A stretch of 64,000 nt of DNA from an uncultured Acidobacteriaceae bacterium (GTDB lineage Bacteria > Acidobacteriota > Terriglobia > Terriglobales > Acidobacteriaceae): contig CAWHMM010000004.1 of assembly GCA_963830555.1 (NCBI GenBank), forward strand, positions 424,064-488,063, given 5' to 3'. A program made the translations under genes and the position numbers. The notes under the pieces are model-generated. The model did not search any database and was not told where the DNA came from. It saw only the letters and a program-made list of their open reading frames with translations. The stretch's first letter is position 1. The number at the start of each line of letters is the position of its first letter. Shown here piece after piece: positions 1,455 through 27,100 of this stretch.

Positions 1455-1544
1455 GGAGGGATGTGTGAGTGGTTGAAACAGGCGGTCTTGAAAACCGCTT
1501 TACCCTTACGGGTAACGGGGGTTCGAATCCCTCTCCCTCCGCCA
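1455..1544 (+). tRNA. tRNA-Ser (anticodon UGA)
   Basis: 90 nt. Acceptor stem GGAGGGA/TCCCTCC. Anticodon stem GCGGT/ACCGC with loop CTTGAAA (anticodon TGA). Long variable arm TTTACCCTTACGGGTAAC typical of class II tRNA. T-loop GGTTCGAATCC. CCA is encoded. Closely parallels the E. coli tRNA-Ser(UGA) layout. Confidence 0.93.
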
Positions 1545-3376: not shown

Positions 3377-3857
3377 AAGCAGAGAGATTTGCATTTGAGT
3401 GAAGCTAAAGGCCGCCCCCAAACGAGCCCCATTTCGTAAATACTTATTAGTGGATGAGCCGAAGTGCTGCTCTCCCGGCTTGAGATACGCAGCGAATCGG
3501 AGGGCGTTCTTTTTCCAACGCCCAGACCTCTATCTGCCGCCCACGATGCGAGCTGGCAATGCAGACGGCTCTCGCCCGGCGCGTCCAATCGCAGGACACG
3601 CGTTGCGAGCCTGATCAAGTCGTATCGGCATTTGAAGTGCGGCTCGTGCCAGGTCAATCCCCGAACCAGGCAACTGCCGCGTGCGTCTTATTGCGCCAGA
3701 GCGCCGACGCCCGGGTGGTCTCCCAACGCGAAGACGCCTCGGTGTCATCTCACCTCCGGAAAGGTATGCCGTATCCCGGAGCGGAGAAATATGCGTCTCC
3801 TGACTTCTGCTTCTCGCGGCGTTGGCATCTCTTCTTTACTTCTTATTGGCGGAGATC

Positions 3858-5759
3858 ATGAAGGAGCTCGAATGGCTACCAAAGAAACCGGCCGACTGGA
3901 ATGCTCGCGTACGTGCCCTTGAATCTAGGGGCCATAACCAGGCGCTTTGGGAAGAGTGCGAGCGGTTGAGTCTTCATCAACTTGACTTCGTCGACACATC
4001 CAAGCTCGACCGCGCCATACAGAGATTGAAATCGTGCGGCGCTCTGGCAGCGGTTAGCCCGAGGCCCATGTTTCGTCTAGCTGTCTTGGGCTCCTCGACC
4101 CTGCAACATCTCGTTCCTGGTTTACGGATAGGCTGTCTGCGGCGCGGAATCGATCTCACCGTGTACATCGGCGAGTACGGCCAATACAGGCAAGAGCTAA
4201 TGTCGCCGACCGCGTTGAACCAGTTCGGCCCCGACGCAGTCCTGCTGGCACTGGATCCTTACCACCTGGCAGAGCGCAGCGCAGGAGCGCCACTTATCGA
4301 CACGCTTCGCGCCTGCTGGCGACAAATACGCGAGATGGGCGCGGTGCCCATCCAGCAGACGGCTTTGCCGGTTCATCCGCACGTCATAGGCACCAACGAA
4401 CACGTGATGCACGATTCGCCGGCCACCATCGTCGACAGCTTCAATGCCGAAATCCGTAAGGAGCCCGGCCTGCTAGTCCTGTCTATCGACGCAGTCGCTG
4501 CGCGGCAGGGCGTCGACGAATGGCACGATCCTGTCTTATGGCACCGCGCAAAACAGGAAATAAGCCCTCGCGTATCCCATATCTATGGCGACAGCGCCGG
4601 GCGCCTCATCTCTGCATTACGCGGCCGCTCGAAAAAATGCCTCGTACTCGATCTCGACAACACGGTGTGGGGTGGGGTTGTCGGCGAAGCGGGCCTGGAA
4701 GGCCTCCAACTAGGACAAGGCACTGCACTCGGCGAGGCCTACGTTAGTTTTCAGCAATATGCGGCCAGGCTATCCCGGCGTGGAGTAATTCTCGCGGTTT
4801 GCTCAAAAAACGACGAAGACATCGCCCTGCACGCCTTCTCGAACCATCCGGAGATGGTGCTCAAAGCGAGTGACTGCGCGTGCTTCGTTGCAAACTGGAA
4901 TGACAAACCGAGCAACCTGCGCTCTATCGCCGACCGCCTGAATATTGGCACCGATTCGCTCGTCTTTGCAGACGATAATCCTTACGAACGCAATTTGGTG
5001 CGCCGGGAAATGCCCGAGGTAGCGGTTCCTGAATTGCCCGAGGACCCTGCACTTTACGCACAGGTGATAGCCGACGCGGGCTACTTCGAGACGACAGCAA
5101 TCACCGAAGATGACCGCTCGCGAGCTCAGCAGTATGGCGCGAACGCAGCCCGGGAGCGCTTGCGGCATGGCAATACTGACCTGGCGGACTACCTGCGCGA
5201 GCTTGACATGGAACTTACCGTTCGCGGATTCGATTCGCCAAGCATCCCGCGTCTCCTACAACTCGTCAATAAAACAAATCAATTCAACCTCACCACTCCT
5301 CGATACATGGAAGAAGAGCTTCGCGCCATGGCATCGGATCGCCAGGTCATCACGCTTCAGTTCCGGCTCCGGGACCGGTTTGGTGATAACGGAACGATAG
5401 CCGTAATGATAGGCAAACAGACGTCTGACGCTGTGACGATTGACTCCTGGCTGATGAGTTGCAGGGTGCTCGGCCGGACAGTAGAGCATGCGTGCCTGAG
5501 CGTAATGGCGGATTTGGCGCGATCGATGGGAGCTACCAAACTGGTGGGAATGTATAAGCCCACGAAAAGAAACGGGATCGTACGAGATTTATACGCCCAG
5601 CTCGGTTTTGCCCGCAGCTGCTCTCTCGCCGACGACACAATCACCGCGTGGGAGCTTTCTTTGCCGACCTGGCGTCCTCCTGCTCTTCTAATGCAGGTCA
5701 GACAGGAGATCGAGGCGGTACCATCCAACTCTCGCGAACCGGTACACAAGATAGGATAG
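3858..5759 (+). CDS. FkbH-like HAD-IIIC family phosphatase / carrier-protein loading enzyme
   Basis: ORF track 3822-5759. ATG 3858 has GGAG immediately upstream. HAD motifs are visible: LVLDLDNTVWGG (DxDxT), LAVCSKND, FADDNPYER. The N-terminal FkbH-type region is FRLAVLGSSTLQHL...GEYGQYRQEL. The C-terminal tail is GNAT-like (DSWLMSCRVLGRTVEHA...). Confidence 0.85.
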   Translation: MKELEWLPKKPADWNARVRALESRGHNQALWEECERLSLHQLDFVDTSKLDRAIQRLKSCGALAAVSPRPMFRLAVLGSSTLQHLVPGLRIGCLRRGIDLTVYIGEYGQYRQELMSPTALNQFGPDAVLLALDPYHLAERSAGAPLIDTLRACWRQIREMGAVPIQQTALPVHPHVIGTNEHVMHDSPATIVDSFNAEIRKEPGLLVLSIDAVAARQGVDEWHDPVLWHRAKQEISPRVSHIYGDSAGRLISALRGRSKKCLVLDLDNTVWGGVVGEAGLEGLQLGQGTALGEAYVSFQQYAARLSRRGVILAVCSKNDEDIALHAFSNHPEMVLKASDCACFVANWNDKPSNLRSIADRLNIGTDSLVFADDNPYERNLVRREMPEVAVPELPEDPALYAQVIADAGYFETTAITEDDRSRAQQYGANAARERLRHGNTDLADYLRELDMELTVRGFDSPSIPRLLQLVNKTNQFNLTTPRYMEEELRAMASDRQVITLQFRLRDRFGDNGTIAVMIGKQTSDAVTIDSWLMSCRVLGRTVEHACLSVMADLARSMGATKLVGMYKPTKRNGIVRDLYAQLGFARSCSLADDTITAWELSLPTWRPPALLMQVRQEIEAVPSNSREPVHKIG

Positions 5760-5761
5760 CC

Positions 5762-6028
5762 ATGACAGCTGCTAACATTCATGAGCAATTAACTCAGATA
5801 TTCCGCGACACCTTCGACGACGATCACATTTTGCTAAGTCCGAACACGACAGCAGCAGATATAGACGATTGGGATTCGTTTAACCACATCAGCCTGATTG
5901 TGGCCACCGAAACACAATTCAAGATCAAATTCCAGACATCCGAAGTGGAATCCTTGAAGAACGTGGGGCACTTTGAGGAGCTGATCGTCCGCAAGCTTGC
6001 GGCCCAGAACCGACTGAATGTGGCTTGA
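5762..6028 (+). CDS. acyl/peptidyl carrier protein (phosphopantetheine-binding)
   Basis: 88 aa from ATG 5762 (MTAANIHEQLTQIFRDTF...). Ser motif DIDDWDSFNHISLIVATE. Small and acidic. The start is 2 nt after the FkbH stop. The longer track ORF (5648) overlaps the FkbH gene and is unlikely. Confidence 0.85.
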   Translation: MTAANIHEQLTQIFRDTFDDDHILLSPNTTAADIDDWDSFNHISLIVATETQFKIKFQTSEVESLKNVGHFEELIVRKLAAQNRLNVA

Positions 6029-6124
6029 ATATCTCGCCGACCGGCTCTGATGCCTCTACAAAATATGCACTAACTCACATAGCTGCGCCATTTGCTGAAC
6101 ATAAGCAGCGCGAGTACGAACCTC

Positions 6125-7645
6125 ATGCTCTTTAATTCACATCTGTTTCTATTCGGATTTCTTCCTCTATGCCTCGTTGGATTCCATCTCGCCTCCCGCA
6201 TCAGTGTGCGCGCGGGTGTCACGTGGCTGGGGTTCATGTCTTGTGTCTTCTACGCCGTTTGGCGATATGAGTTCCTCACCCTCCTGCTTGGGTCAGTAAT
6301 CGTAAATTTTGTGTGCGCGCGCTTGATTTGGCGAGCAAGGGAGCGACCAGAGCACCAGAAGCGAATCCTATTTGCGGGTATCGTCTTCAACATCGGATTG
6401 CTGGTCTACTACAAGTATTGCTTTCCCTTCCTCAATGCATTGGGCCGCCTTACCACCCTCCATCATCAGTTTGCGGGTGTGCTGCTGCCCCTGGGTATAA
6501 GCTTCTTCACTTTCACTCAAATCGCTTACCTAGTGGACCTGCAACAGGGCGCGGCCGAGTGCGAAGGTTTTCGTAGCTACCTGCTATTTGTCACCTTTTT
6601 CCCGCATCTGATCGCCGGCCCAATCCTGCATCACTCGGAGATGATGCCCCAGTTCAAACGCCGCATCCGTCTCAATCAAGTTGACTTGAATGTGGGTTTC
6701 ACCTGGTTTGTCATGGGTCTGTTTAAAAAGGTGATTCTGGCGGATAGCATTGCTCCGGCTGCAGACGCGGCCTTTGCCAACCCGCACGGGCTAACGTTCC
6801 TTCCCGCCTGGATTGGAGCTATCACTTACTCTCTCCAGCTCTATTTTGATTTCTCGGGATATTCGGACATGGCAATTGGTATAGCCAGAATGTTCTCGAT
6901 CCGCTTTCCTTTAAACTTCAATTCCCCATATAAAGCGCGCAACGTCATCGACTTCTGGTTTCGCTGGCACATGACGTTGACAAGGTACATCATGATGTAC
7001 CTGTACAATCCGGTCGCGCTGGCGATCAGCCGAAAGCGGGTAGCGCAAGGTAAGCCGGTGGCACGCAGGGGCTCGAAGACAGCCTCGGGATTTGCCCAGC
7101 TTATCGCGCTGCCCACGGTATTCACGATGGCCATCGTAGGCGTTTGGCACGGTGCAGGATTTCAATTTCTGCTCTTTGGACTAGCGCATGCTGTGTATCT
7201 GACCGCAAATCACGCTTGGCGCATCTTCAAGCCGCGCTGGCTCACCGAACGTTTCCCATCGTCCAGGGCGACGGGATTGATGGCCTGCAGTCTGACCTTG
7301 TTGTGCGTTGTACTTGCGCAGGTGCTGTTTCGCGCTAACTCTACATCCGACGCATTCAGCATGCTCGCAGGTATGATTGGACTCCACGGATGGAAACCCG
7401 ACTCGCTTTCCGTTATGCGACCGGTCCTTGTACGCGTGCCTATTCGCATGGCTATCGTGTGGCTCTTGCCCAATACCCAACAGGTTCTTGCCCGATACGT
7501 GACGACGGATCCCGAAGACCTTCCCGGCGCCCGGTGGTTCACTTGGCGCCCCAGCGTCGCATGGGCGCTGACGATTACGGCAGCACTTCTAATGTCTTTC
7601 ACGTGGATCGAAGACACCACCAGATTTCTCTACTTCCAATTTTGA
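6125..7645 (+). CDS. MBOAT family O-acyltransferase (AlgI/DltB-like)
   Basis: ORF track 6092 (TTG). ATG 6125 gives the family-typical N-terminus MLFNSHLFLFGFLPL. Conserved blocks are FWFRWHMTLTRYIMMYLY and VGVWHGAGFQFLLFGLAHA (catalytic His region). Polytopic and hydrophobic throughout. Confidence 0.9.
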   Translation: MLFNSHLFLFGFLPLCLVGFHLASRISVRAGVTWLGFMSCVFYAVWRYEFLTLLLGSVIVNFVCARLIWRARERPEHQKRILFAGIVFNIGLLVYYKYCFPFLNALGRLTTLHHQFAGVLLPLGISFFTFTQIAYLVDLQQGAAECEGFRSYLLFVTFFPHLIAGPILHHSEMMPQFKRRIRLNQVDLNVGFTWFVMGLFKKVILADSIAPAADAAFANPHGLTFLPAWIGAITYSLQLYFDFSGYSDMAIGIARMFSIRFPLNFNSPYKARNVIDFWFRWHMTLTRYIMMYLYNPVALAISRKRVAQGKPVARRGSKTASGFAQLIALPTVFTMAIVGVWHGAGFQFLLFGLAHAVYLTANHAWRIFKPRWLTERFPSSRATGLMACSLTLLCVVLAQVLFRANSTSDAFSMLAGMIGLHGWKPDSLSVMRPVLVRVPIRMAIVWLLPNTQQVLARYVTTDPEDLPGARWFTWRPSVAWALTITAALLMSFTWIEDTTRFLYFQF

Positions 7646-8658
7646 GTGTTCCCACTGCCTGACGATCCTCTATCGAGGTCAGACGCTATCAGATGTGAGA
7701 CGACTGCGCTATTTCTCCGTGCTCCTGCCGAATTCAGGTGCCATGCGTCAGAGAACGCTTGCGCTGGGAACACTTCGGGCGGTGCAATGCCGATGGTATT
7801 TGCGATGCGCTCATAAGCCGCAACATTGCGGTCACAGCTGCGAACCGGACTTGCATATAGAAGAACCTTCGTGCCTTGGACGCTATAGCGACGACGAAGC
7901 TCATCGAGATAGCCGCGATCAAAGGAGGGACTGGCCGCCTGGATGGAACAGACCTTACTGGGATCCGCCCCGGTCGCCAGGGGGTAGTATCCGTTGTACT
8001 TGCTTAAGATTGCTGCGTCGTTGAGATAGCTTCTTCTGAGAGGGTCGAACAGTAGGCCGGGGTTCAGGGTGAACACCTGTTGCCACCAATGTTCCGCGAA
8101 CACGAGGCTATCCTTCGGATGCATAAGGTAGAATCTTGCGGCTTTGCCTGGTGAGAGGAGACGATCCACCAGGAGCCACCCATCGATGATCCCCCAGTCT
8201 TCGTCGTAGGTTGGGGGACGCAGATGGGCTGCGTGTTCTGCAAAAATGATGAGTTTCGGGGCTGCGCTACGGTCCAGATAGTTATCCAGAACACGATTGC
8301 CTGTGGAGGCCAGCGCCATGTATGGCAGCGAAAGAACGCAGGTCTTATATCCTGTGTGGCTTTGGACTACAAGGGGGTCTATACCCGTAGCACCAGTAGA
8401 ATCTCCAAAGACAATAACGTCGCAGTGTTCTCCCTTCATACCCAGATGAAATTCCATAATGTGCCAGAAGATGTGACCTGACATTTCATCTAGAAGTCGA
8501 CTTCGGGCAGCGACAAATGGAAGGAGCAGCCAGACCACGGCAATGCTCAGCACCAGTGGCAGATATACTCCGGGCGACGCCGTTCGCCAAGAACGTACCT
8601 TGGGCTCAGCTGTGGCCTGTATCAATGATTCGGCAACCGGCTCATCAGTCGTGATCAT
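7630..8658 (-). CDS. membrane-anchored SGNH/GDSL-like protein (DltD-like topology), function unknown
   Basis: 342-aa ORF with an N-terminal hydrophobic anchor VYLPLVLSIAVVWLLLPFVAA. Block I-like VIVFGDSTGATGID and block V-like FSDAWHLNS (DxxH). Its 3' end overlaps the MBOAT 3' end by 16 nt (convergent). Confidence 0.6.
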   Translation of the reverse strand: MITTDEPVAESLIQATAEPKVRSWRTASPGVYLPLVLSIAVVWLLLPFVAARSRLLDEMSGHIFWHIMEFHLGMKGEHCDVIVFGDSTGATGIDPLVVQSHTGYKTCVLSLPYMALASTGNRVLDNYLDRSAAPKLIIFAEHAAHLRPPTYDEDWGIIDGWLLVDRLLSPGKAARFYLMHPKDSLVFAEHWWQQVFTLNPGLLFDPLRRSYLNDAAILSKYNGYYPLATGADPSKVCSIQAASPSFDRGYLDELRRRYSVQGTKVLLYASPVRSCDRNVAAYERIANTIGIAPPEVFPAQAFSDAWHLNSAGARRNSAVVSHLIASDLDRGSSGSGNTQNWK

Positions 8659-9235
8659 CGGCCGCTCCGAGAGGATTCTTGCCTAGAAATCTCGCCATGG
8701 AAAGTTGCCACTTCAACTGCGGCTCGGCTGTTCGGGCTATGCCTTGCAGTCCTTGGCGGTTACCTGCGGTGATTTCATGTCTGCACATGGCAAGCAGTCG
8801 TTGGTCGCTCTTCACCATATTCTTTGAAAACTGCGTGTCGAACGCCTCGCCTTCCAGCACACTCAGTCGGCGCTCTTCTTCATACGACTCTGGGCTCAGC
8901 GTGGCTGGATACGCCGCCAAGCTATCCTTTTGGATTACAGCGTTCCGCACGGCAGCATCATCATCAATGATGATTTCGGCAAATCGCTCAATCCCCGGAT
9001 CTGAGCTTTTCAGTAAGGCGAGCCTGGCTTCCATCGTCTGCAACTGCTGCAACTCGCCGACAGAGAACACGAAGTTCGCGTCGGTCGCGCTCATGTGGGC
9101 ACTCTGGCGTGAAATTGCGGCAGGCACATCGGCTGGTTGCGTCACCAGAGGTAGCTCCTTCATGTCTGTGCCATCCATCTGGAGGACGAGGATCAAGGGA
9201 GCAGCAATGCGTACCAGCGAATACAAGGAAATCAT
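8645..9235 (-). CDS. hypothetical exported protein, DUF4142-like two-repeat helical protein
   Basis: 196-aa ORF with a hydrophobic N-terminus. Two repeats resemble DUF4142 (TDANFVFSVGELQQLQTMEARLA...ERFAEIIIDDDAAV and EGEAFDTQFSKNMVKSDQRLLAM). It overlaps the start of 7630-8658 by 14 nt on the same strand, suggesting an operon. The family call is tentative. Confidence 0.5.
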   Translation of the reverse strand: MISLYSLVRIAAPLILVLQMDGTDMKELPLVTQPADVPAAISRQSAHMSATDANFVFSVGELQQLQTMEARLALLKSSDPGIERFAEIIIDDDAAVRNAVIQKDSLAAYPATLSPESYEEERRLSVLEGEAFDTQFSKNMVKSDQRLLAMCRHEITAGNRQGLQGIARTAEPQLKWQLSMARFLGKNPLGAADDHD

Positions 9236-9507
9236 GTGGGTAACCGACCCTCAGAGCTCTCATGGCATCTTCAGACATGCAGAGCTCGGTCTCTCATCTA
9301 GGATGGCCGAAGTCAGGGCCAGATGGAACACGGTGTACACCAATGCATCTCACGGACTTATGACTCATCAAAAATTCTGTTGATGCTTCCAAACGCGCCG
9401 TCGCGGGTAGTGGATTATCACTGTACTGAATGGGTTTTTCAGCCGCGCATAACGTCACGCTCTGCTCCCTTCGGCCGGCGCATCTGAAGAGGCAATGGAG
9501 TTTAGAA

Positions 9508-11259
9508 ATGACGGCGTGGGCACGCTCACTTCTGGGCCGCTTCGGCTCGAGATCGAACGAGCATTCTGAGACTTCCCGAACGGAACGCGTGGGACGATCA
9601 AGCCCTTTTCTACTCGGCACACGGATCTCGTCAGATCTGGTAGCAGTTGCCGCCGGCACGCTCCTGACATACCTGATAATGGTTCGGTTTTCCCTCGGAC
9701 GTCTTCTCTGGGAGGACGAGGTTCTTGGGTGGATGCTGGTTCGTGACCCCTCATGGAAGCACATGTTTTCCAGCTGGATATCCGGAGCCGATGGTGGCGG
9801 ATGCTCGTTCTACCTGACAGGCCGACTATGGTTGATGGTTTTTGGGCAATCCGTTATGTCGTTTCGTGCCTATTCTGCTACGGGTTTCGCAATAGCATTC
9901 CTGCTGGCCTGGTGGGCTGCGCGGCGGTTCTATTCTGTACCGGTCGTCGCATTCGCTGCGTGTGTCACATGGTTTCTTTCGCCCGAATTGGTGGGCCACT
10001 TCGGCGAAGGACGATTCTACGGACTGTTTGTCGCTTCTACCGCGCTCGTGGTGTCGCTGATTATCAAATCTGCGAAGGAACCATACCCGACTAAGACCTT
10101 CGTAGTCGGCTTCTTCCTGGCGAATTCACTTCTGGTGACGTCGCATATCCTCGGCGTTTGCTATAGCGCGGTTCTCTTACTCGGACTGATTGCAATGGAC
10201 CGGGCCCAAAGGAATAGCCGCGGCCGTCTATACTTCGCCGTCTGCGCGAGCTGGTTATGGCTAATACCTAGCGCACCCGCGATTCTCGCATCGGCCGCGG
10301 TGGGAAAGCCTTATTTCTGGACGGCGCGCCCCACTCTGTCGTCATTGCTGTTCGCTTATACGGGATTCAGCCTACGAACTGCTGTAATCGGGTTGGTTCT
10401 CATTTTGCTGACTGTCGTTTTTTGGCGCCAGCGTGACCTTCGACTGGCACGTGTGGAGATGAAAGATCGCCAGGCGATTCTGTTCATCACTGGCGCGCTC
10501 TTTCTGATCCCACCCCTATTCGCCATTGAGAGCATTTTGGGCCCGTCAGTGTTCAACGGACGCTACATGCAACCAGTGGTGATCGCCACGCTGTTCGCAA
10601 TGTGCGAGGTTTTGAGGCAACTCTCTGAGGTTCATGTCACGTGGCTCAAGCAGGGTGTCTTGCGATGGATTGCTGCAATCGGGCTGGTTGGGATGGTGTT
10701 GCAATATGACTTGGCGTACCTGCCCCGTTACAGCTCAACACATATCGACTACTCCCGCTTGCTGATCTCCCATTTGCCTCGTAGGATTCCGATCCTGTGC
10801 GAGGATGCGTTCACATTCACGGAACTCATTGCGCGGCAGGCGGATCCGTCAGTGCAGTTTATGTACCTGCTGGACTGGCAATACAGCATCAGCCCATCCG
10901 CGCCGCGCCTGGAAGTGACTCAGTATCACCTTATGGAGAATTGGAAACGGGTCGGCTACTTCGCCGATCGTGTGATGTACCGTTCAGGGTTTCTGTCCGC
11001 ACACCCGTTTTTTATAGTGCTGCATACGAATGAAGATGAGCTTGCGACTTTATCCCGAAAGGCTCGACCGGGCTTTCGAGATTCTTTCATCGGCGATCCA
11101 TTGACCGCCCGGTTCGCGAGAAATCCTCTTTATCTAACGCTCCCCTTCGGAAGTCAGGCCATCGGTCCGCTGCGCGAGAGTGAGGCTCTGGTGTGCCGCC
11201 GTGACCTTGATTGCACGGCAATCCTCAAGCAGCTGAAGCAATCCGTCGTTAGTCCATGA
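9508..11259 (+). CDS. polytopic membrane protein, GT-C-fold glycosyltransferase-like (PMT_2/ArnT-like)
   Basis: ORF track 9430-11259. ATG 9508 has GGAG 7 nt upstream. There are many hydrophobic segments and an acidic first-loop motif RLLWEDEVLGW of the kind found in PMT/ArnT-type enzymes. The C-terminal third is soluble. Coding is confident but function is tentative. Confidence 0.55.
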   Translation: MTAWARSLLGRFGSRSNEHSETSRTERVGRSSPFLLGTRISSDLVAVAAGTLLTYLIMVRFSLGRLLWEDEVLGWMLVRDPSWKHMFSSWISGADGGGCSFYLTGRLWLMVFGQSVMSFRAYSATGFAIAFLLAWWAARRFYSVPVVAFAACVTWFLSPELVGHFGEGRFYGLFVASTALVVSLIIKSAKEPYPTKTFVVGFFLANSLLVTSHILGVCYSAVLLLGLIAMDRAQRNSRGRLYFAVCASWLWLIPSAPAILASAAVGKPYFWTARPTLSSLLFAYTGFSLRTAVIGLVLILLTVVFWRQRDLRLARVEMKDRQAILFITGALFLIPPLFAIESILGPSVFNGRYMQPVVIATLFAMCEVLRQLSEVHVTWLKQGVLRWIAAIGLVGMVLQYDLAYLPRYSSTHIDYSRLLISHLPRRIPILCEDAFTFTELIARQADPSVQFMYLLDWQYSISPSAPRLEVTQYHLMENWKRVGYFADRVMYRSGFLSAHPFFIVLHTNEDELATLSRKARPGFRDSFIGDPLTARFARNPLYLTLPFGSQAIGPLRESEALVCRRDLDCTAILKQLKQSVVSP

Positions 11260-11374: not shown

Positions 11375-11728
11375 TGGTGGAGGCGGCGGGAGTCGAACCC
11401 GCGTCCGAAATCGCTGTCAGCCGAGAGACTCCATGCGTAGTCGCGTTCCAAAGACTTCGCAACGGGCGCTTAGAACGGACAAGATGCGCACGCCGCTAGC
11501 CCGAAAATCTCATCTCCGCGGCCCGGACATAGCCTTGGAAACCAGCCTGCTGTGTGACGTCCTGACCTTGGCCCGCAGACAAAGCCTTGGAGGACGGCTA
11601 CTTATTTAATTAAGCAGCAAGTGCAAGATTGTTATTGGCAATCATTGTTTTTGCAAGCGATTACGGGTGCTCACACCCCGGCATGCCTCTCGATCCGCAA
11701 TCGATCCCGTCGAAACCGTGACGCCCCC
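11375..11728 (-). ncRNA. ssrA: tmRNA (transfer-messenger RNA)
   Basis: The minus strand reads 5'-GGGGGCGTCACGGTTTCGACGGGATCG... and ends ...CGCGGGTTCGACTCCCGCCGCCTCCACCA-3'. The acceptor stem GGGGGCG/CGCCTCC contains the G3:U70 alanine identity pair. A T-arm GGGTTCGACTCCC is present. The tag reading frame GCC AAT AAC AAT CTT GCA CTT GCT GCT TAA (11639-11610) encodes ANNNLALAA. Confidence 0.93.
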
Positions 11729-11856
11729 AACTCGGGTATACACGCCAGACGTGGCGATCGTAACTACTTGATAAGTATAGCATGGCGACCCACCCGTCCG
11801 GTCTTTTTCCATCACCGGATTAAACCCATTGCAAATCTCCCGGTTGCGAGAGTACA

Positions 11857-12264
11857 TTGCCGGCCCATGCCCCCACACTCGATGCAATCCAACGCAGTAT
11901 GCAAAGCACGAACGAGCTTTTTAACGCGGAGGTCTTCGGCAAACGGAACTTCGCCGCTCTCGATGACATCTACACGCGCGGCGCCCGCATTCTTCCACCC
12001 GGCGCTCCGATGATTTCCGGCCGCGAGGCAATTAAAAAATTCTGGACCGATCTGGTGCAATCGGCGAATGCAAAATCCGCCACTCTCGCTTCCGTGGACG
12101 TGATGCAGGCCGGTGATGGCGTGGTGGAGATCGGAAAGGCGACGCTTACCGTTGAGCCCTCCGGACAACCTGCCGCGCAGATGGAAGTGAAGTACGTCGT
12201 CTATTGGCAGCAGGAGGATGGCCGCTGGAAATGGCACGTCGACATTTGGAATCCGAACTCCTGA
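11857..12264 (+). CDS. SnoaL-like / DUF4440 (NTF2-fold) protein
   Basis: 135-aa ORF (TTG 11857; alternative ATG 11899). The pattern ...FNAEVFGKRNFAALDDIYTRGARILPPGAPMISGREAIKKFW...YVVYWQQEDGRWKWHVDIWN is typical of this fold family. Confidence 0.75.
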   Translation: MPAHAPTLDAIQRSMQSTNELFNAEVFGKRNFAALDDIYTRGARILPPGAPMISGREAIKKFWTDLVQSANAKSATLASVDVMQAGDGVVEIGKATLTVEPSGQPAAQMEVKYVVYWQQEDGRWKWHVDIWNPNS

Positions 12265-12285
12265 TCGAATCGTTGAGTCCGGCGG

Positions 12286-13758
12286 CTACACGAAGCGAAT
12301 CCGGCGGGAGGCCAGCACCACCATGCGGAGTAGCACCACCCCGTGCTTCCACCGCTGAATATTCGTCTCCCCGTACTTGCGTTCGCGATAGCGTATGGGC
12401 AGATCAAGGATCTTCAGGTTGTATCGTGCCGCTCCAAACAGAAGATCGAAATCGCCGAAGGGATCAATTTCGCCAAAGTACGCACGATTCTCAGCAATGA
12501 TCTGATAGTGGGTTTTGCTGAGGACCTTGGTTCCGCAAAGGCTGTCCTTCACGCTCTGGCTGAGCAGCCAGCTGAATGCCAGGCTGAAGAACTTGTTGCC
12601 GAGCAGGTTGAAGAAGCGCATCGCCTTGTCTTCCATGGGATAGACCAACCGAACGCCATTGATGAAGTCGCCTCGCCCTGTCCGCCATGCCTCATAAAAG
12701 CGCGGCAGGTCCTCCGGAGGAACCGTCAGGTCGGCATCGAGAATCATCAGCAGATCGCCCGCAGCCCGGTCAAAGCCCAGCCGCACCGCATCGCCTTTGC
12801 CGCGGCCTGTCTGCTTGTAGAGCTTCGCGGTACAGCCCGGCCGCGCTGCGATCTCCTGCTCAATGCGTTCATAGGTCTGATCACTGGAGTTGCCCTCGAC
12901 AAAAATCAGCTCCGTACCTGCTCCCATGGAAGGAACGCGATCGAGAATCGCCGGGATGTTGCCCGCTTCATTGCGTGCGGGAACGACGACGGTGACCAGA
13001 GGCTCCGGTGAGGCCGGGTACGCAGGCACCGGACGCGCCACGACGAAGTTCGTCAGTCCGAACCAGCGAAAGGGCCAGATCTTTACGAGATATCGATTGC
13101 AAAACGTGTCGAGCAGTGGGAGCCGCACAGGACACATGATCTCGGAAGAGGTTCGCACCAGTTCGAATCCGCCAAGGGTGAGCAGGTTCGCTATGTCCTC
13201 GACCGTCAGCCAGTTCTGGCTGAGCTGCGGCTTCGCCAGCCCGAGCCTCTCCGCCAGATGCCGCGGGCCTTCCCACAACCGGCTATAGCAGTTGATGAGT
13301 ATCCGCGTGCCCTGATGGCAATGCCTTGCGATCTGCTCAAAGACCGTCTGCACATCCCACAGGTCGTTCAGCAGGTCAGAGCAGAGGATGAAATCGAATT
13401 CCCCTTCGCACTGCAGCGAGCCTGCATCTCCCGTCTCGAAATGCAGCCCGGGGAATTTGCTTCGCGCTCGATCGATCAACTGCGAGGAAAGGTCGATACC
13501 GTAGCCGTACGCCGGCTCGAGCTTGGCCAGCAGTTCCCCATCGCCGCACCCGAGTTCCAGAACGCGCATGCCCGGCGGCACGGAGAGCTTATAGATCTCT
13601 GCCAGCCGCCGCTGATAGTAGTTGCGGATGCCCGCCCACCTCGACGCCGTTCGCGCGTAATCCTCCCAATAGCGCCGCCGCTCTTCCGTATATGCAGCGG
13701 ACTGCGCGGAAGGCCGCACATAAGTTGACTCAGGGGAGTGCATCTGGGAGGATGACAT
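12286..13758 (-). CDS. fusion protein: class I SAM-dependent methyltransferase + family 2 glycosyltransferase (DPM1/GtrB/ArnC-like)
   Basis: 490 aa. N-terminal SAM motif I MRVLELGCGDGELL. C-terminal half has VTVVVPARNEAGNIPAIL, ELIFVEGNSSD, MILDADLT (DxD) and LCGTKVL. No C-terminal TM helices are evident. Confidence 0.85.
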   Translation of the reverse strand: MSSSQMHSPESTYVRPSAQSAAYTEERRRYWEDYARTASRWAGIRNYYQRRLAEIYKLSVPPGMRVLELGCGDGELLAKLEPAYGYGIDLSSQLIDRARSKFPGLHFETGDAGSLQCEGEFDFILCSDLLNDLWDVQTVFEQIARHCHQGTRILINCYSRLWEGPRHLAERLGLAKPQLSQNWLTVEDIANLLTLGGFELVRTSSEIMCPVRLPLLDTFCNRYLVKIWPFRWFGLTNFVVARPVPAYPASPEPLVTVVVPARNEAGNIPAILDRVPSMGAGTELIFVEGNSSDQTYERIEQEIAARPGCTAKLYKQTGRGKGDAVRLGFDRAAGDLLMILDADLTVPPEDLPRFYEAWRTGRGDFINGVRLVYPMEDKAMRFFNLLGNKFFSLAFSWLLSQSVKDSLCGTKVLSKTHYQIIAENRAYFGEIDPFGDFDLLFGAARYNLKILDLPIRYRERKYGETNIQRWKHGVVLLRMVVLASRRIRFV

Positions 13759-13936
13759 GCAATAACGCTACCACTGCCGGCTTTCTGGTCAATACCCAGG
13801 TATCGACAAGCTGCACGCAGGTCTCCGAATTCCGGAATGGAGTGATCCCCTGAACCCACAGGAAAGTGCCGCCCCCGCAGATCACGAGGTCGAACTTCGC
13901 AGTCGACCCGAAGCGGATGTATACAGGGCTCTTCGG

Positions 13937-15229
13937 ATGTATGTAATTGCGCTGGTGGCGTTCACGGCGTTCGCCTGGTGTGTCGCCGGCGTCCGCGGAC
14001 ACATTCTGCACGAGCCGTACCCACGCAACACGGTGTTCTTCCTGCCCGAAGTCCGATTCTCGGATTTCACGGATCTAAGCGAACGCGTGTTTCATATGAG
14101 TGAGCCCCACGTTCTTTCACGGACCGATATCAAAGCCATTCACCCTTTTGTCGGTCCCTATCCTTACCCAGCACCATCCTTTTACGTTTTTGTCTTCTTC
14201 GTTCGTTTATTTCCGCTCCATTCCCTACGGGCGTATCTGATCTTCACTGTTCTGAGCTTCCTGTTCGCAACCTGCTTCTTTTCGCTGCGGGTCAGCCGCT
14301 CCACCCATAGAAAACTTCCGCAGGTCGCGATCTGGTCTACGCTTTTGCTGGGTTTTCCGCTGCAATTCTTGATAGACCGCGGAAATATCGAGGGAGTGAT
14401 CTGGCTGTTGATTTTGATGGGGCTTGTTGCCTTCACACGGAACCGGATGGTGATTTCAGCGATTGTGTGGGGCCTCGCGGCATCGATGAAGGTGTTTCCG
14501 GGCCTGCTCTTCGTGCTTATTCTCGCTCGGCGTAAGTTCGGGACATTTGCCGTCGGTATAGCCGCGACTGTTGCCTTTTCACTATTGGCTCTGGCCGGAA
14601 TCGGCCCTACCGTTCACCAAGCCGCTCGTGAAAGCTCAAGGAGCGCGGCCTTTCTAAAGAATAGTTACATCATTCCGGATGACACCGCTGGATTTGATCA
14701 TGCGCTCTTCCAGGCGGTCAAACATGTCATCTACATCGCAGAGGCATTCGACAAGCATCGCACTGCTCCGCTCATCATCAGCACCCTGCCGGCGAATCGA
14801 ATCGCATTGCGGATCTATAACATTGTGATCCCGCTGGGCGCTCTTCTGCTTTACTGGTTTCGCCTTCGCCATCTGCCGCTGTTGAACCAATTCATCGCCT
14901 ATGTCGTTCTTTGTGTCTCGTTGCCCTATGTTTCCGGTGATTACACGCTGGTTCACATGTACATAGCGTGGGCAGCGTTTCTATTGTTTCTGGTCGATGA
15001 CGTCGCGACAGGCCGGGTCAGGATTCCAGCCAAAGTTATTCACGCTCTCCTGTTGTCCTGCGTTGTACTCTTCGTGCCTCTCAGCTACCTTGAAATTGCT
15101 TACGACGCCAATCTCCATTTCCGCTTCGGGGCGCAGGTGAAGACGATCTTCCTCTTGATCATCCTTCTTACGGTGCTCCGTTTCCCCATGCCAAGTTCGC
15201 TTTTTGATGATCTACAACTTAAGCACTGA
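13937..15229 (+). CDS. polytopic membrane protein, GT87/DUF2029-like GT-C glycosyltransferase (paralog 1)
   Basis: 430 aa and highly hydrophobic. Motifs FLIDRGNIEGVIW and AASMKVFPGLLF are like DUF2029/GT87 proteins as I remember them. Clear paralog of 15259-16644. Confidence 0.6.
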   Translation: MYVIALVAFTAFAWCVAGVRGHILHEPYPRNTVFFLPEVRFSDFTDLSERVFHMSEPHVLSRTDIKAIHPFVGPYPYPAPSFYVFVFFVRLFPLHSLRAYLIFTVLSFLFATCFFSLRVSRSTHRKLPQVAIWSTLLLGFPLQFLIDRGNIEGVIWLLILMGLVAFTRNRMVISAIVWGLAASMKVFPGLLFVLILARRKFGTFAVGIAATVAFSLLALAGIGPTVHQAARESSRSAAFLKNSYIIPDDTAGFDHALFQAVKHVIYIAEAFDKHRTAPLIISTLPANRIALRIYNIVIPLGALLLYWFRLRHLPLLNQFIAYVVLCVSLPYVSGDYTLVHMYIAWAAFLLFLVDDVATGRVRIPAKVIHALLLSCVVLFVPLSYLEIAYDANLHFRFGAQVKTIFLLIILLTVLRFPMPSSLFDDLQLKH

Positions 15230-15258
15230 ACGGGAGCTACCTACTTAGTCGGAGCAAC

Positions 15259-16644
15259 ATGATCTCCTTTATGAAGCGCGACCCTTCCTTAGCTGCGTCC
15301 GTTGTGGAAAGTCCGAATTCGCAATGCGAAGCACGGATTCAGAAGTGCATACGATCTTACGTTCTCTTCCTCGTAGCACTCACCGTTCTGGCATGGTCGG
15401 TATCTCTCGTCCGTACTTACATCCTGCATGAACCTTATGAGCGGAGCACGCTGCTGGCTCCGGAAGCTCCTTTCACTGATTTCACTTTTCTCGGGCACAG
15501 ACTGGATCATCTTGGAGAAGCCGACATGCTCACGCGGCCCGATCTCGGTGAACCGTATCCCTACCCGACGCCCTCCATTTATGCCTATCTGATCTTTCTA
15601 CGCACATTTCACCACCATATATTCGCAGCGCTATTTGCCTATCTGTTATTTGCAGCTTCAGCGTTTACTCTCGCGGCATGCATTTTTTCGAAACAGCTTG
15701 GTCGTATTTCGTCGAACCGATTACCTCGGCTAGCGGTAGGAGTCACGCTGCTAACCGCGTTTCCCGTGATGATTATGATCGATCGTGGAAACATCGAAGC
15801 TGTCATGTGGGTTTTGGTGATCCTTGGACTCTTGGCATATTTGCGAAAGCGATTCCTGACCTCAGCGGTCCTGTGGGCGGTTGTCGCCGCTATGAAAATA
15901 TCCCCGGGCATACTGTTTGCGCTTTTTCTTGTCAGACGCAAGTACATGATGATTTTTGTCGCGCTGACCGTGGCAGCGGGACTTGCCGTGCTCTCCCTGA
16001 TACAAGTGGGTCCGACTCTACATCAGGCGATGGTAGATAGTTCGCGTAGTGCACCCTACCTCGTCAACACATTCATGTTGGGACGCCATTATCCCTGGTT
16101 TGATGAGTCGATCTTCGGCGCTGTGAAGGAAGTGCTCTCGGTCCATGCGTACATGACTAATGGCCACCACCAATTACCACAGGTGCTCCCCGTCACTCGA
16201 ACGGCATTGCGAATATACAATATCGTTGCACCACTGGGAGCTCTGCTCCTCTATTGGTTTTGTCTGCGGCGCTTGCCTTTGTTAAATCAATTTATCGCGT
16301 ACGTCGTTCTTTTCACGATTCTGCCTCAAGTGTCGTACGAATATAAGCTTGTGTACATATACCTAGTCTGGGGCGTATTTTTTTATTTCCTTCTTACCGA
16401 TGTCGTTTCTGGACAAGTTGCCATACCCGCACGAGTAATCAACATCATGCTGCTGTCCTGTGCGGTCATCTTCGCTCCGCTCAGTTTTCTTCGAGTAACT
16501 TATGGTGTGAGTATGCTGGCCTTTGGCGGGCAGATAAAGCTGCTGCTTTTGCTACTCATACTTCTGACAGTATGCCGCGTCCCCATGCCCAGTTCACTCT
16601 TCGGCGATCTGCAACTCCCCGCTGCAAAGGACGCCGCGGCCTAG
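15259..16644 (+). CDS. polytopic membrane protein, GT87/DUF2029-like GT-C glycosyltransferase (paralog 2)
   Basis: 461 aa. Motifs MIDRGNIEAVMW and VAAMKISPGILF. Shares long identical blocks with paralog 1 (ALRIYNIV.PLGALLLYWF.LR.LPLLNQFIAYVVL; PMPSSLF.DLQL). Confidence 0.6.
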   Translation: MISFMKRDPSLAASVVESPNSQCEARIQKCIRSYVLFLVALTVLAWSVSLVRTYILHEPYERSTLLAPEAPFTDFTFLGHRLDHLGEADMLTRPDLGEPYPYPTPSIYAYLIFLRTFHHHIFAALFAYLLFAASAFTLAACIFSKQLGRISSNRLPRLAVGVTLLTAFPVMIMIDRGNIEAVMWVLVILGLLAYLRKRFLTSAVLWAVVAAMKISPGILFALFLVRRKYMMIFVALTVAAGLAVLSLIQVGPTLHQAMVDSSRSAPYLVNTFMLGRHYPWFDESIFGAVKEVLSVHAYMTNGHHQLPQVLPVTRTALRIYNIVAPLGALLLYWFCLRRLPLLNQFIAYVVLFTILPQVSYEYKLVYIYLVWGVFFYFLLTDVVSGQVAIPARVINIMLLSCAVIFAPLSFLRVTYGVSMLAFGGQIKLLLLLLILLTVCRVPMPSSLFGDLQLPAAKDAAA

Positions 16645-24154: not shown

Positions 24155-27100
24155 GTGAAACGTTTCAGCCATTGGCATTCCATCCTTGTTGTTGTCTCTC
24201 TTCTTGCAACCCCGGCACTTGTTTTGGCGCAGGCAACAACATCGCTGGGAGGCCGAGTGACAGACGCCAGCGGCGCGATTATTCCCGACGCCACCGTCAA
24301 GCTGACCTCCGTGAGCACCGGTGCATCGCGTGTGAACACGACGGCGGGCGGCGGTGAATATCAGTTCTCGCAACTCGCGCCCGGCCGTTACACGCTGAAC
24401 GTGATGGCAGCAGGCTTCGGCTCCATAGAGAAAACCAACATGGACCTGCTGGTAAGCCAGCCGGCGACCGTAAACGTGACGCTGCCGGCTGCTTCCGTCA
24501 AACAAGAGGTGACGGTCACATCCAGCGTCCAGCCGGTGCTGAACACAACCGACGCCACACTCGGCAACGCATTCGATCGCACCCAGGTCGCCTCCCTGCC
24601 GCTGGATGCTCGAAATATTCCTGACCTGTTGACGCTGCAGCCTGGAGTCACGTTCCTGGGGCGGGCCGATGACGTGCAGAGCACGCAGGGCGTAGGAAAC
24701 AATCCGACCGATTCGCGGGCCGGTTCGGTAAACGGCGGCCGCTCCGACCAGGCAAACATCACGCTTGATGGAATCGACGTAAACGACGTCAACAACGGCT
24801 ACGCCTTCACCAGCGTTCTCAGGACAACGCAGGACTCGGTGGCGGAGTTTCGGGTGACGACGAGCAATCCCAACGCGGAGGAGGGGCGGTCGTCCGGAGC
24901 GCAGGTCGCGCTGGTAACGCGCAGCGGGTCGAACAAACTGCATGGCGCGGTCTATGAATACAACCGATCGAACCTGATGGAGGCGAACGACTTCTTCAAC
25001 AAGCAGCAACAGCTCGCGTCCGGACTACCCAATCGTCCGACGAGCCTGGTGCGGAATATTTTTGGCGCTGCCATAGGTGGCCCCATAAAGAAGGACCGGC
25101 TGTTCTATTTCCTGAACTATGAGGGCCGCCGTGATTCCCAGGGCACAAGCGTGAATGCCGGAGCCGTGCCAACAGCCAATTACCGCGCGGGCAGCTTAAA
25201 GTACGAATCCCTCAATGCCAATGGCAGCGACAGCGTATATACATTGACGCCGAGCGATATGCAGCACATGGACCCGCAGGGCATTGGGAACAGCACCGCG
25301 CTGCTGCAGGTGCTGAACGCATATCCGGTGGGAAACGATCCGACGCAGGGCGATGGCCTGAACAGCATTGGCTACCGCTTTCCCTCTACCATCGCTCGCA
25401 AGTACGACACCTACATCGCACGCATCGACTGGAATGTCAGGCCGAGCGGCAAGCACACCCTGTTCTGGCGCGGGAACCTGCAGAATGATCGAGAGCCGAC
25501 GGCGCCCGCATTTCCCGGACAGCCACCGCAAACGACCGCGCTAACCAACAGCAAAGGGTTCGGGATCGGTTACACATTCCTGATCACTAACAACCTGGTG
25601 AATGACGTGCGCTACGGACTGACGCGCCAGGGCCAGAACAATGCCGGCGCTTCGAACGCGCCGATCGTTTATTTCTCATTGCTTGCACAACCGGTTTCAC
25701 CCGACCGCTCCACGTCATTCATCATTCCGGTGCAGAACCTGACTGACAACCTATCGTGGACAAAGCACAACCATAACCTCGCCTTCGGCGGAAATTTCCG
25801 CTTCATCGACGACCAGCGAGTGAGCAACGCCCAATCATTTCCGGACGGGCAGATGAACCAGGGTTGGCTGACACGCAGCTCAACCATTGCAAACAGCGGT
25901 GGCCCGTTCGATCCGCCGGTCTCCGGATACCCAGCAGTCGATTTTGCGAACTACGGGAACGAATATAACGCTGCGCTGATGAACATAGTCGGCACCATTA
26001 CCGAAGGGGACGCTGTCTACAACTACAACAAATCCGGCGCCACGCTTGCCGTCGGCGCGCCGCTGAAACGGGATTATCGCTGGAATGAGTACGAGGCATA
26101 CGCGCAGGACACCTGGAAGGTTCTGAGCAATCTAACCGTCACCTATGGAGTGCGCTACTCCTATCTGCAGGCCCCTTCTGAAACGAGCGGCACCCAGGTC
26201 GGCACCTGCCAGTTCGCGGGAAGTGTCTGCCAACCCTACTCGCTGACTCAGTACTACAACGGCAGCGCTGCTCAGGCAGCGGCAGGCGGTGCAGCCAACG
26301 ACGTGGGGGAAGTAGCCTTCAACCTGAATGGCCGCTACAATCACGCGCCGGACTTCTGGGCTCCGGACAAGAAAGACTTCGGGCCGCGGCTGGCCATTGC
26401 CTTTTCTCCAAACCCGTCGGAAGGGTTCTGGAACAAGATCTTCGGCAACCAGAAGAGCAGCATCCGCGCAGGCTACTCTCTGGTCTTCGACCACTTCGGC
26501 GCTGCATTGGTCAACGTCTTCGATACCACCGGCTCCTATGGATTGTCGTCGCACCTGTCGAACGCGCCCGGTTCCATACCTATAGAGAATGCACCGCGAT
26601 TCACGACCATCAGCGGGGTGCCGCAGTCGCTGCTGCCCGCCGCGCCTCCGGGTGGCTTTCCCGCTGTCCCGGCGTCGAGCGGAAACGGCAGCTTCGCCAT
26701 CAGTTGGGGACTGGATTCAGCTATAAAAACACCGTACTCACATCTGATCGATTTCTCAGTTGCGCGTGAGTTGCGGAATGGCTCGTCGATCGAACTGTCG
26801 TATGTCGGCCGCCTGGCGCACCGGCAACTGGCGCAGGAAGATGTGGCCATGCCTATCAATCTGCAGGTCGGCGGAACTGCTTACTTCCAGCCTGCGGCCC
26901 AGCTCGCAAAAATGGCGCGAGCCAACGTACCGGTCTCGTCCGTCGCCCAGGATCCATACTGGGAGCAGGTATTTGGCGGCCTGGACGGCCAGGACGTCGG
27001 CCTGGGCTATGGCCCATTGTCCGCAACACAGAATGTGTACGCCTTGTTTCTGAGCAATATCTACAACGAAACCTATGCGTTATATCAACTGGACACGCCG

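Follow-up and report, generated by a model that had tools for sequence, protein, structure and literature searches.

We analyzed a stretch of 64,000 nucleotides (nt) from an uncultured Acidobacteriaceae bacterium (GenBank assembly GCA_963830555.1, contig CAWHMM010000004.1, positions 424,064 to 488,063 of the forward strand), hereafter the window. It holds genes for an FkbH-type loader, an acyl carrier protein (ACP), an MBOAT (membrane-bound O-acyltransferase), and a convergent protein resembling SGNH hydrolases (P4), followed by one for a putative GT-C-type membrane glycosyltransferase (d609; Table 1). A note made earlier from the letters of the window (the original prediction) had proposed that the first four genes form an acylation module like the Dlt pathway, primed by FkbH instead of an adenylating enzyme; these four adjacent open reading frames (ORFs) are all present at the positions given and translate without stops. 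We read the genes between 3858 and 11259 as one envelope-acylation relay unit, and we give this reading a probability of roughly 0.6.

Table 1 Features of the window, with the proposed unit first (positions count from the first letter of the window; aa, amino acids)
Feature	Position	Strand	Length	Basis or remark
FkbH-type loader	3858-5759	+	633 aa	TIGR01686 above cut-off; PDB 3slr match
Acyl carrier protein	5762-6028	+	88 aa	Net acidic; ortholog profile against solved ACPs
MBOAT membrane acyltransferase	6125-7645	+	506 aa	Pfam MBOAT; DltB structures
FLYFQF at the MBOAT's C-terminus (residues 501-506, Y503)	7625-7642	+		FxYxxF motif
P4	7630-8658	-	342 aa	N-anchored, GDS and DAWH; SGNH-like putative acyltransferase
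GT-C-type membrane glycosyltransferase (d609)	9430-11259	+		Fifth conserved member
tRNA-Ser(TGA)	1455-1544	+		About 2.3 kb upstream of FkbH
orf100	3559-3861	+	100 aa	Stop overlaps FkbH start
DUF4142 protein	8645-9235	-		N-terminal hydrophobic segment; Pfam DUF4142, E = 4e-18
tmRNA	11375-11728	-		Tag ANNNLALAA; 116 nt after the GT-C gene
Methyltransferase and GT2 fusion	12286-13758	-		Resembles polyprenyl-phosphate-sugar (hexose) synthases; Pfam, NCBIfam
GT87 GT-C paralog 1	13937-15229	+		Pfam, NCBIfam
GT87 GT-C paralog 2	15259-16644	+		Pfam, NCBIfam
CarboxypepD_reg and OMP beta-barrel protein 1	24155-27967			Large protein
CarboxypepD_reg and OMP beta-barrel protein 2	29017-32355			Large protein
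CarboxypepD_reg and OMP beta-barrel protein 3	34332-37856			Large protein

The FkbH-type protein matched the NCBIfam model TIGR01686 (FkbH domain; E = 3.8e-91, 305.6 bits, cut-off 146.65) and the HAD-IIIC model TIGR01681 (E = 1e-14, 55.4 bits, cut-off 35.75), and in it a HAD-IIIC phosphatase domain follows an FkbH_N domain, with a C-terminal domain as the third part. The closest solved relative of the N-terminal and HAD domains is BF1531 of Bacteroides fragilis (PDB 3slr), which covers both by matching residues 69-418 (E = 3.7e-64), whereas its crystallized chain, a structural-genomics entry, ends before the C-terminal, Cys-containing domain. The HAD motifs had been described as intact, and DLDNT (D265/D267), CSKN (315-318), and DDNP (372-375) are indeed in place. 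In a comparison of 12 FkbH homologs that includes tetronate-linked and polyketide synthase (PKS)-linked members (the Methylosinus enzyme from a canonical tetronate cassette, KSIII-FkbH-ACP-E2-like-...-PKS, where KSIII is a ketosynthase (KS) of type III, and the Burkholderia enzyme from a PKS cluster), D265/D267/T269, S316-K317-N318, K350, D372-D373, and S534-C535-R536 of the C-terminal domain are invariant. Work on OzmB reportedly places a glyceryl group on the Cys of the C-terminal domain, and the conversion of 1,3-bisphosphoglycerate into glyceryl-S-ACP by OzmB, FkbH, and Tmn16 is established. Because all residues of the characterized type are kept, the window enzyme is predicted to make a glyceryl-S-carrier from 1,3-bisphosphoglycerate.

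The carrier gene begins with an ATG 2 nt after the FkbH stop, as the original prediction had it. As a single sequence the carrier gave no Pfam match, and its matches to ACP models in NCBIfam stayed below the cut-offs (best E = 2.6e-5); its orthologs in two related loci (L111 and L112) gave weak matches to Pfam PP-binding. A profile of nine orthologs, however, matched solved ACPs (2lml at E = 6e-28, and many fatty acid synthase (FAS) ACPs at 1e-11 to 1e-7). The triplet W37-D38-S39, which contains the expected D-S attachment motif, is invariant in all nine, and S39 is the predicted site of phosphopantetheine attachment. Judged from the ortholog profile and this motif, the carrier is very probably a genuine, dedicated ACP.

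The MBOAT matched Pfam PF03062 (E = 1.8e-18, 67.4 bits, cut-off 27), and the only solved structures that its sequence brought up are those of DltB (6bug, E = 2.4e-26); H282 (in RWHM) aligns to H289 of DltB, and H342 (in VWHG) to H336. It had been credited with the AlgI/DltB histidine blocks, and both catalytic His residues are in place; a DltB-like architecture does not hold, and the score against the DltB equivalog TIGR04091 was 164.8 bits, under the cut-off of 375. The protein ends in FLYFQF, an instance of the FxYxxF motif that closes the C-terminus of 16/16 related MBOATs that we collected. FxYxxF has been defined as an "acyl shuttle," carried in Dlt by the microprotein DltX; PatA and other MBOATs that modify polymers bear it fused at their own C-terminus, on two additional helices. 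The Tyr of the motif is auto-acylated and then passes the acyl group to the SGNH partner, as shown for DltX and PatA (PMC12148441). The DltX motif has been given as FLYFGF (PMC11035591), that of Bacillus cereus DltX is FIYNEF, and a tblastn search of the window found no match to DltX. By these marks the MBOAT is the longer PatA/AlgI form with a DltX-type shuttle fused at its C-terminus, here occurring together with a carrier protein.

P4 is encoded convergently with the MBOAT, with which it shares a 16-nt overlap, and has a single N-terminal transmembrane (TM) segment (residues 33-51), a GDS block (85-87, with S87), and a DAWH block (304-307, with D304 and H307). It had been described as an anchored SGNH protein; the anchor and both blocks stand, but no SGNH hidden Markov model (HMM) matched it. 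Searches of Pfam and NCBIfam returned nothing for P4 itself and no family for 96 members of its family, among which only scattered sub-threshold matches appeared (DUF1574, ALGX, SGNH). The label "SGNH" thus comes from the motifs and a weak fold match, not from an HMM. An exhaustive profile search recovered 675 representatives at 50% clustering, typically of ~320 aa. Across 138 full-length members there is no variation at G85, S87, P134, and H307 and almost none at D86, and the N-terminal TM segment is found in 131. Lys and Arg are in excess on the N-terminal side of this segment in 71 members vs. on the C-terminal side in 27, a positive-inside bias. Cys79 and Cys107 occur both in 106 members, neither in 32, and one alone in none, and Cys237 and Cys275 are both found in 134/138. 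Since paired, co-varying Cys residues are a disulfide signature, we predict a catalytic domain on the periplasmic side, in agreement with the earlier expectation that P4 does not face the cytoplasm.

A first full-length model of P4 had no Foldseek match below E = 0.01. An AlphaFold2 model of residues 56-335 from a deeper alignment (pLDDT 95, pTM 0.93) matched Enterococcus faecalis DltD best (6o93, E = 7.5e-3, probability 0.69), followed by other SGNH folds, namely those of a CE2 esterase, PAF acetylhydrolase, TesA, and sialate O-acetylesterases; none of these matches is statistically strong. Searched against PDB sequences, the P4 profile gave only matches at E ~ 1, to the block-V region of PatB and to a DUF459 protein. 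A natural fusion of P4 with an MBOAT exists (P0092). We conclude that P4 founds an undescribed family of putative Ser/His enzymes of the periplasm, probably SGNH-like in fold, that partner MBOATs; in the proposed unit it would act as a transferase rather than as an esterase.

The fifth gene, d609, encodes a putative GT-C enzyme that is polytopic (~8-11 TM segments); its first loop holds an invariant W94-E-D-E97, and its C-terminal part is a soluble domain. The protein had no direct match in Pfam, and its profile none in the PDB; 5/42 homologs carry PF13231 (PMT_2) or PF11028, and the only strength reported for these (P0175) is weak. In at least 12 distinct loci the gene accompanies MBOAT-P4, and its product probably installs or extends the sugar that becomes acylated.

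We located complete sets of the five genes by looking up the contexts of GT-C homologs. Besides the window, four loci hold FkbH, carrier, MBOAT, P4, and GT-C (L024, L032, L111, and L112), and the five sets show four gene orders. In L024 the order FkbH-carrier-MBOAT-P4-GT-C is collinear, with housekeeping genes on both flanks and no tailoring enzyme; L111 and L112 have P4-MBOAT-carrier-FkbH, divergent from GT-C, and L032 has GT-C divergent from FkbH-carrier-P4-MBOAT. In a further locus (L110) an insertion sequence (IS) precedes carrier-P4-MBOAT-GT-C at the place where FkbH would be expected, apparently a remnant that lost FkbH. The idea of an FkbH-primed acylation module is thus supported, because the genes are co-conserved across loci, with the correction that the unit also includes the GT-C gene; the predicted co-conservation of the first four genes was borne out in the same four loci and by analogues on alphaproteobacterial plasmids.

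A metagenome scan with the FkbH alignment returned 80 loci, of which 66 contain a carrier (adjoining FkbH in 61) and 35 an MBOAT. Restricting the count to the 24 loci flanked by 5 kb or more on either side, we found a carrier in 23/24 and an MBOAT within 2.7 kb in 15/24. MBOAT genes are rare in bacterial genomes, with a handful per genome, and their frequency near FkbH exceeds chance by orders of magnitude. An adjacent N-anchored Ser/His partner is seen in at least 21 of the 35 MBOAT loci; one of these partners scores above the Pfam threshold for ALGX, and a second matches Lipase_GDSL_2.

Analogous four-gene modules lie on alphaproteobacterial plasmids, namely Sinorhizobium meliloti pSymB, Tistrella pTM1, and one from Rhodobacteraceae SC52, and each contains an MBOAT that ends in FxYxxF and a very divergent N-anchored partner with GxS...DxxH. 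On pSymB (L016, CP140934.1, 1032913-1037948) the order is MBOAT-partner-ACP-FkbH, beside the rkpR/ABC capsule-export (rkp-3) genes, and the operon is present on pSymB of ~40 strains; its 409-aa N-anchored partner bears the annotation "TonB-dependent receptor," apparently in error. In SC52 the order is ACP-FkbH-MBOAT-partner-VOC. The hhalign comparison of the P4 profile with the partners gave a modest match for SC52 (E = 1.8e-5, probability 78%) and non-significant ones for two others, and a tblastn search of the plasmids with P4 found no match.

The FkbH-carrier pair and the MBOAT-P4 pair could also be two independent neighbors, with MBOAT-P4(-GT-C) acting as an acetyl-CoA O-acetyltransferase of the PatA/PatB or AlgI/AlgJ type and FkbH-carrier serving an unlinked enzyme. 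We scanned one genome per species with the P4 alignment and found loci of two types. Type A loci (nine fetched, eight distinct; closest MBOAT at ~60% identity) have GT-C(-) P4(+) MBOAT(-), and FkbH and carrier were not found within the available sequence; nor were they found near the closest plasmid MBOATs, those of Ralstonia and Skermanella. Coupling of MBOAT-P4-GT-C to FkbH-carrier is therefore not obligatory, and this clade of MBOATs may use acyl-CoA, as MBOATs with a fused FxYxxF are held to do, having no carrier (PMC12148441). FkbH-carrier pairs related to that of the window sit beside other user enzymes (WcbI, MaoC-SDR, KSIII), so that the pair would be a general donor module rather than one specific to MBOATs. 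These points weigh against a single relay, and so do several features of P4: D304, at -3 from the His, is shared by only 66/138 members; V108 and S131 stand where ~90% of the family has Asn; the Foldseek matches to SGNH proteins range from E = 7.5e-3 to 0.05, with none <1e-3; and hhalign gave the 96-sequence P4 profile a probability of 0.5% against B. cereus DltD, which is no match. The DltD chains were not matched in the search of PDB sequences either; by sequence, P4 shows no detectable kinship with DltD, a correction to the original prediction.

Several observations nevertheless speak against mere neighborhood. The adjacency recurs in at least four gene orders, in two phyla, and at identities down to ~35%; because it recurs in many unrelated loci, it is far beyond chance, and the MBOAT count among assessable FkbH loci points the same way. 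Type B loci (L012-L014 and L004) hold an FkbH-carrier-P4' cassette, where P4' is a P4 paralog of 36-39% identity, and so put a candidate periplasmic transferase directly after the carrier of a cytoplasmic donor pair; in L013 the cassette is flanked by the his operon and unrelated genes. At least two metagenome-assembled genomes (MAGs) hold both a Type A and a Type B locus (L010 and L005 come from Type B MAGs). In the window itself, tblastn (64 kb, E <= 0.01) found no homolog of DltA, KS, KSIII, E2-like acyltransferase, WcbI, MaoC-SDR, or VOC, so that no rival acyl-ACP-accepting enzyme is present among the types tested (KS, KSIII, E2-like, and WcbI). Independence of the two pairs is in our judgment unlikely. 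The split systems, with their own P4 paralog at each locus, resemble alginate's AlgJ and AlgX, two SGNH-like partners to one MBOAT.

FkbH-ACP pairs are classically PKS- or tetronate-linked, and the literature pairs FkbH with an MBOAT only in aeruginosin/suomilide clusters, which would suit a role in secondary metabolism with the MBOAT acylating a small molecule. The original prediction had argued against a polyketide role from the lack of DltA-like adenylase, ketosynthase, and FkbG/I/J/K-type genes in the window, a statement that holds for the types tested by tblastn. No KS, KSIII, E2-like acyltransferase, or PKS lies in the 64 kb, the genes conserved alongside encode an SGNH-like protein of the periplasm and a glycosyltransferase of the GT-C type, and the neighboring genes are those of glycan synthesis; we regard a polyketide or tetronate pathway here as highly improbable. 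The enzymes of the FkbH, OzmB, Tmn16, and Agg2 systems share the three domains, the invariant residues, and an ACP gene immediately beside, whereas their context is a ketosynthase, FkbK/I/G, or a tetronate cassette and the predicted user in the window is a membrane acyltransferase relay.

A third possibility keeps the relay and changes its cargo: FkbH might use a different acyl-phosphate, or unlinked enzymes might modify the glyceryl-carrier before export (e.g., to lactyl, pyruvyl, or O-methyl-glyceryl). In related loci FkbH-carrier is often accompanied by a MaoC-SDR fusion (13 loci), S-adenosylmethionine (SAM) methyltransferases, or VOC proteins, and the window has FkbM-type and other methyltransferases 5-7 kb downstream. 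Against this, the window lacks homologs of the MaoC-SDR, VOC, and Tistrella-type methyltransferase genes, the five-gene operon of L024 lies amid housekeeping genes without a tailoring enzyme, and every residue common to tetronate-type FkbHs is kept. A cargo other than glycerate in the window thus seems to us distinctly unlikely, a shade more so than independence of the two pairs. For the sister systems, the extra VOC, methyltransferase, and MaoC-SDR genes suggest that glyceryl-ACP is tailored (e.g., to lactyl or O-methyl-glyceryl).

These sister loci vary in content. The fusion of a MaoC dehydratase with an SDR is found beside FkbH-ACP in 13/80 metagenomic loci (e.g., L099, 4601-6082), and in Niveispirillum beside FkbH-ACP together with a WcbI-type acetyltransferase. 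A VOC/glyoxalase-family protein lies beside FkbH-ACP on three alphaproteobacterial plasmids (L016, L018, and L022), and class I SAM methyltransferases do so in L017 and L018. In L018, a Paroceanicella plasmid, ACP-FkbH-methyltransferase-VOC is followed by a 439-aa protein (11473-12792) similar in its C-terminal half to the Vi capsule system's VexE (E = 4e-7), and then by MprF and AcvB/VirJ genes, a different possible outlet for the FkbH-ACP donor. On a Bacillus thuringiensis plasmid (L026, pCH_133-e) an MBOAT 35% identical to that of the window is followed by a 357-aa hypothetical protein, IS231F, and a 147-aa "HAD-IIIC phosphatase" fragment, which looks like an IS-disrupted module in a Gram-positive host.

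Under the reading that we prefer, a single envelope-acylation relay, the HAD domain of FkbH would act in the cytoplasm by removing the 3-phosphate of 1,3-bisphosphoglycerate, the glyceryl group being held on Cys535, and FkbH would then transfer it as a thioester to the phosphopantetheine arm on Ser39 of the carrier. The glyceryl-carrier would dock at the cytoplasmic face of the MBOAT, whose His342/His282 site would move the acyl group across the membrane onto Tyr503 of its own FLYFQF. P4, anchored and facing the periplasm, would receive the acyl group on Ser87 and esterify a hydroxyl of an envelope glycan, most likely a sugar handled by the co-conserved GT-C, which would work from a polyprenyl-phosphate-sugar donor. 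The sequences themselves give the family assignments, the catalytic residues, the outward topology predicted for P4, and the co-conservation of the genes; from these we infer glycerate as the acyl group, the carrier instead of acyl-CoA as the donor to this MBOAT, transferase activity for P4, and an envelope glycan as the acceptor.

The likeness to Dlt lies in a small dedicated carrier beside an MBOAT and an N-anchored, outward-facing Ser/His protein, in the FxYxxF tyrosine shuttle, in DltB being the MBOAT's only solved kin, and in DltD being the top, though weak, structural match of P4. The differences are as many. The loader of the window is of the FkbH/HAD type and would act on an acyl-phosphate, whereas that of Dlt is the ATP-dependent adenylase DltA; the shuttle is fused to the MBOAT, whereas Dlt has the DltX microprotein; the carrier is nearer to FAS-type ACPs than to DltC; P4 has no detectable sequence homology to DltD; a GT-C glycosyltransferase belongs to the unit; and the host is diderm, whereas Dlt is known from Gram-positive bacteria, where it D-alanylates teichoic acids. 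With PatA/PatB, AlgI/AlgJ/AlgX, and WssH/WssI the window shares an MBOAT of ~500 aa whose additional helices at the C-terminus close with FxYxxF, an adjoining separate partner that is predicted to be periplasmic and is SGNH-like by motifs and a weak fold match, and a diderm host, and some sister loci use an AlgX-like partner. PatA, AlgI, and WssH, however, use acetyl-CoA and, by the account of PMC12148441, no carrier, whereas the MBOAT-P4 pair of the window is co-conserved with a carrier and a loader, which implies a non-acetyl, hydroxy-acid acyl group.

Between P4 and GT-C lies a gene for a DUF4142 protein whose stop overlaps the P4 start; this overlap (translational coupling) indicates that the two are co-transcribed here. 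A DUF4142 homolog was not found in the other related loci, and the protein is therefore probably not a core component. We rejected orf100 as a component: it had no Pfam or NCBIfam match and no tblastn match outside an identical contig (L001), none of the related loci has a homolog, and the ORF probably does not represent a real gene. A promoter/terminator scan gave no signal above the shuffled background.

Farther downstream, the genes at 12286-16644 possibly belong to the same glycan pathway as the unit, which the FkbM-type and other methyltransferase genes of the window would suit as well. The two tandem GT87 paralogs are 48% identical to each other, and in a related locus (L003) a GT87 gene lies near the MBOAT-P4-GT-C trio. 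The GT2 fusion and the GT87 pair suggest periplasmic glycan assembly of the mycobacterial mannosyltransferase type in a diderm. The region at 24155-56125, with its three large CarboxypepD_reg and OMP beta-barrel proteins adjoined by GH106 and GH78 alpha-L-rhamnosidases and a melibiase/PKD protein, looks like a polysaccharide-utilization region for rhamnose-rich glycans. Between the tRNA-Ser and tmRNA genes the GC content is 0.54-0.57, vs. ~0.59-0.60 on either side. Genes for tRNA and tmRNA are classic integration sites of islands, and the unit might for that reason have been acquired horizontally as a genomic island between them.

MBOAT-SGNH pairs are the main bacterial route for acylating polymers outside the cytoplasm, and such acylation controls resistance to lysozyme and antimicrobial peptides, the properties of biofilm matrices, and host recognition. 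The current view confines carrier proteins to Dlt and has every other MBOAT-SGNH pair draw on acyl-CoA (PMC12148441). Our full-text literature searches turned up no paper that, for the cell envelope, connects FkbH or HAD-IIIC proteins to MBOATs; those combining HAD-IIIC/FkbH with MBOAT, polysaccharide, rhizobia, or ACP returned polyketide and aeruginosin papers only. The parts of the unit are all of known kinds and their combination is not; it is widespread in soil metagenomes and uncharacterized. We see about even odds that it represents a second, widespread carrier-dependent MBOAT-SGNH pathway, the first outside Dlt, in which FkbH would divert a glycolytic intermediate onto an ACP and the MBOAT with its fused shuttle would export the hydroxy-acyl group, equipped with the new P4 family and a co-evolving GT-C.

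If this is true, the conserved FkbH-ACP-MBOAT-SGNH(-GT-C) unit would break the rule that carriers are confined to Dlt, and envelope ester chemistry would extend past acetyl and D-alanyl groups. Thousands of genes whose annotation goes no further than "HAD-IIIC family phosphatase," "acyl carrier protein," "MBOAT," or "hypothetical protein" would gain a function, and FkbH chemistry would have its first role in cell-envelope biogenesis rather than in secondary metabolism. In the sister loci, lactate-type or methyl-glycerate esters would be expected. The S. meliloti module on pSymB, by the rkp-3 capsule genes, offers a genetically tractable model for the pathway, and glycerate esters would be unrecognized envelope decorations in Acidobacteriota and Alphaproteobacteria, S. 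meliloti included.

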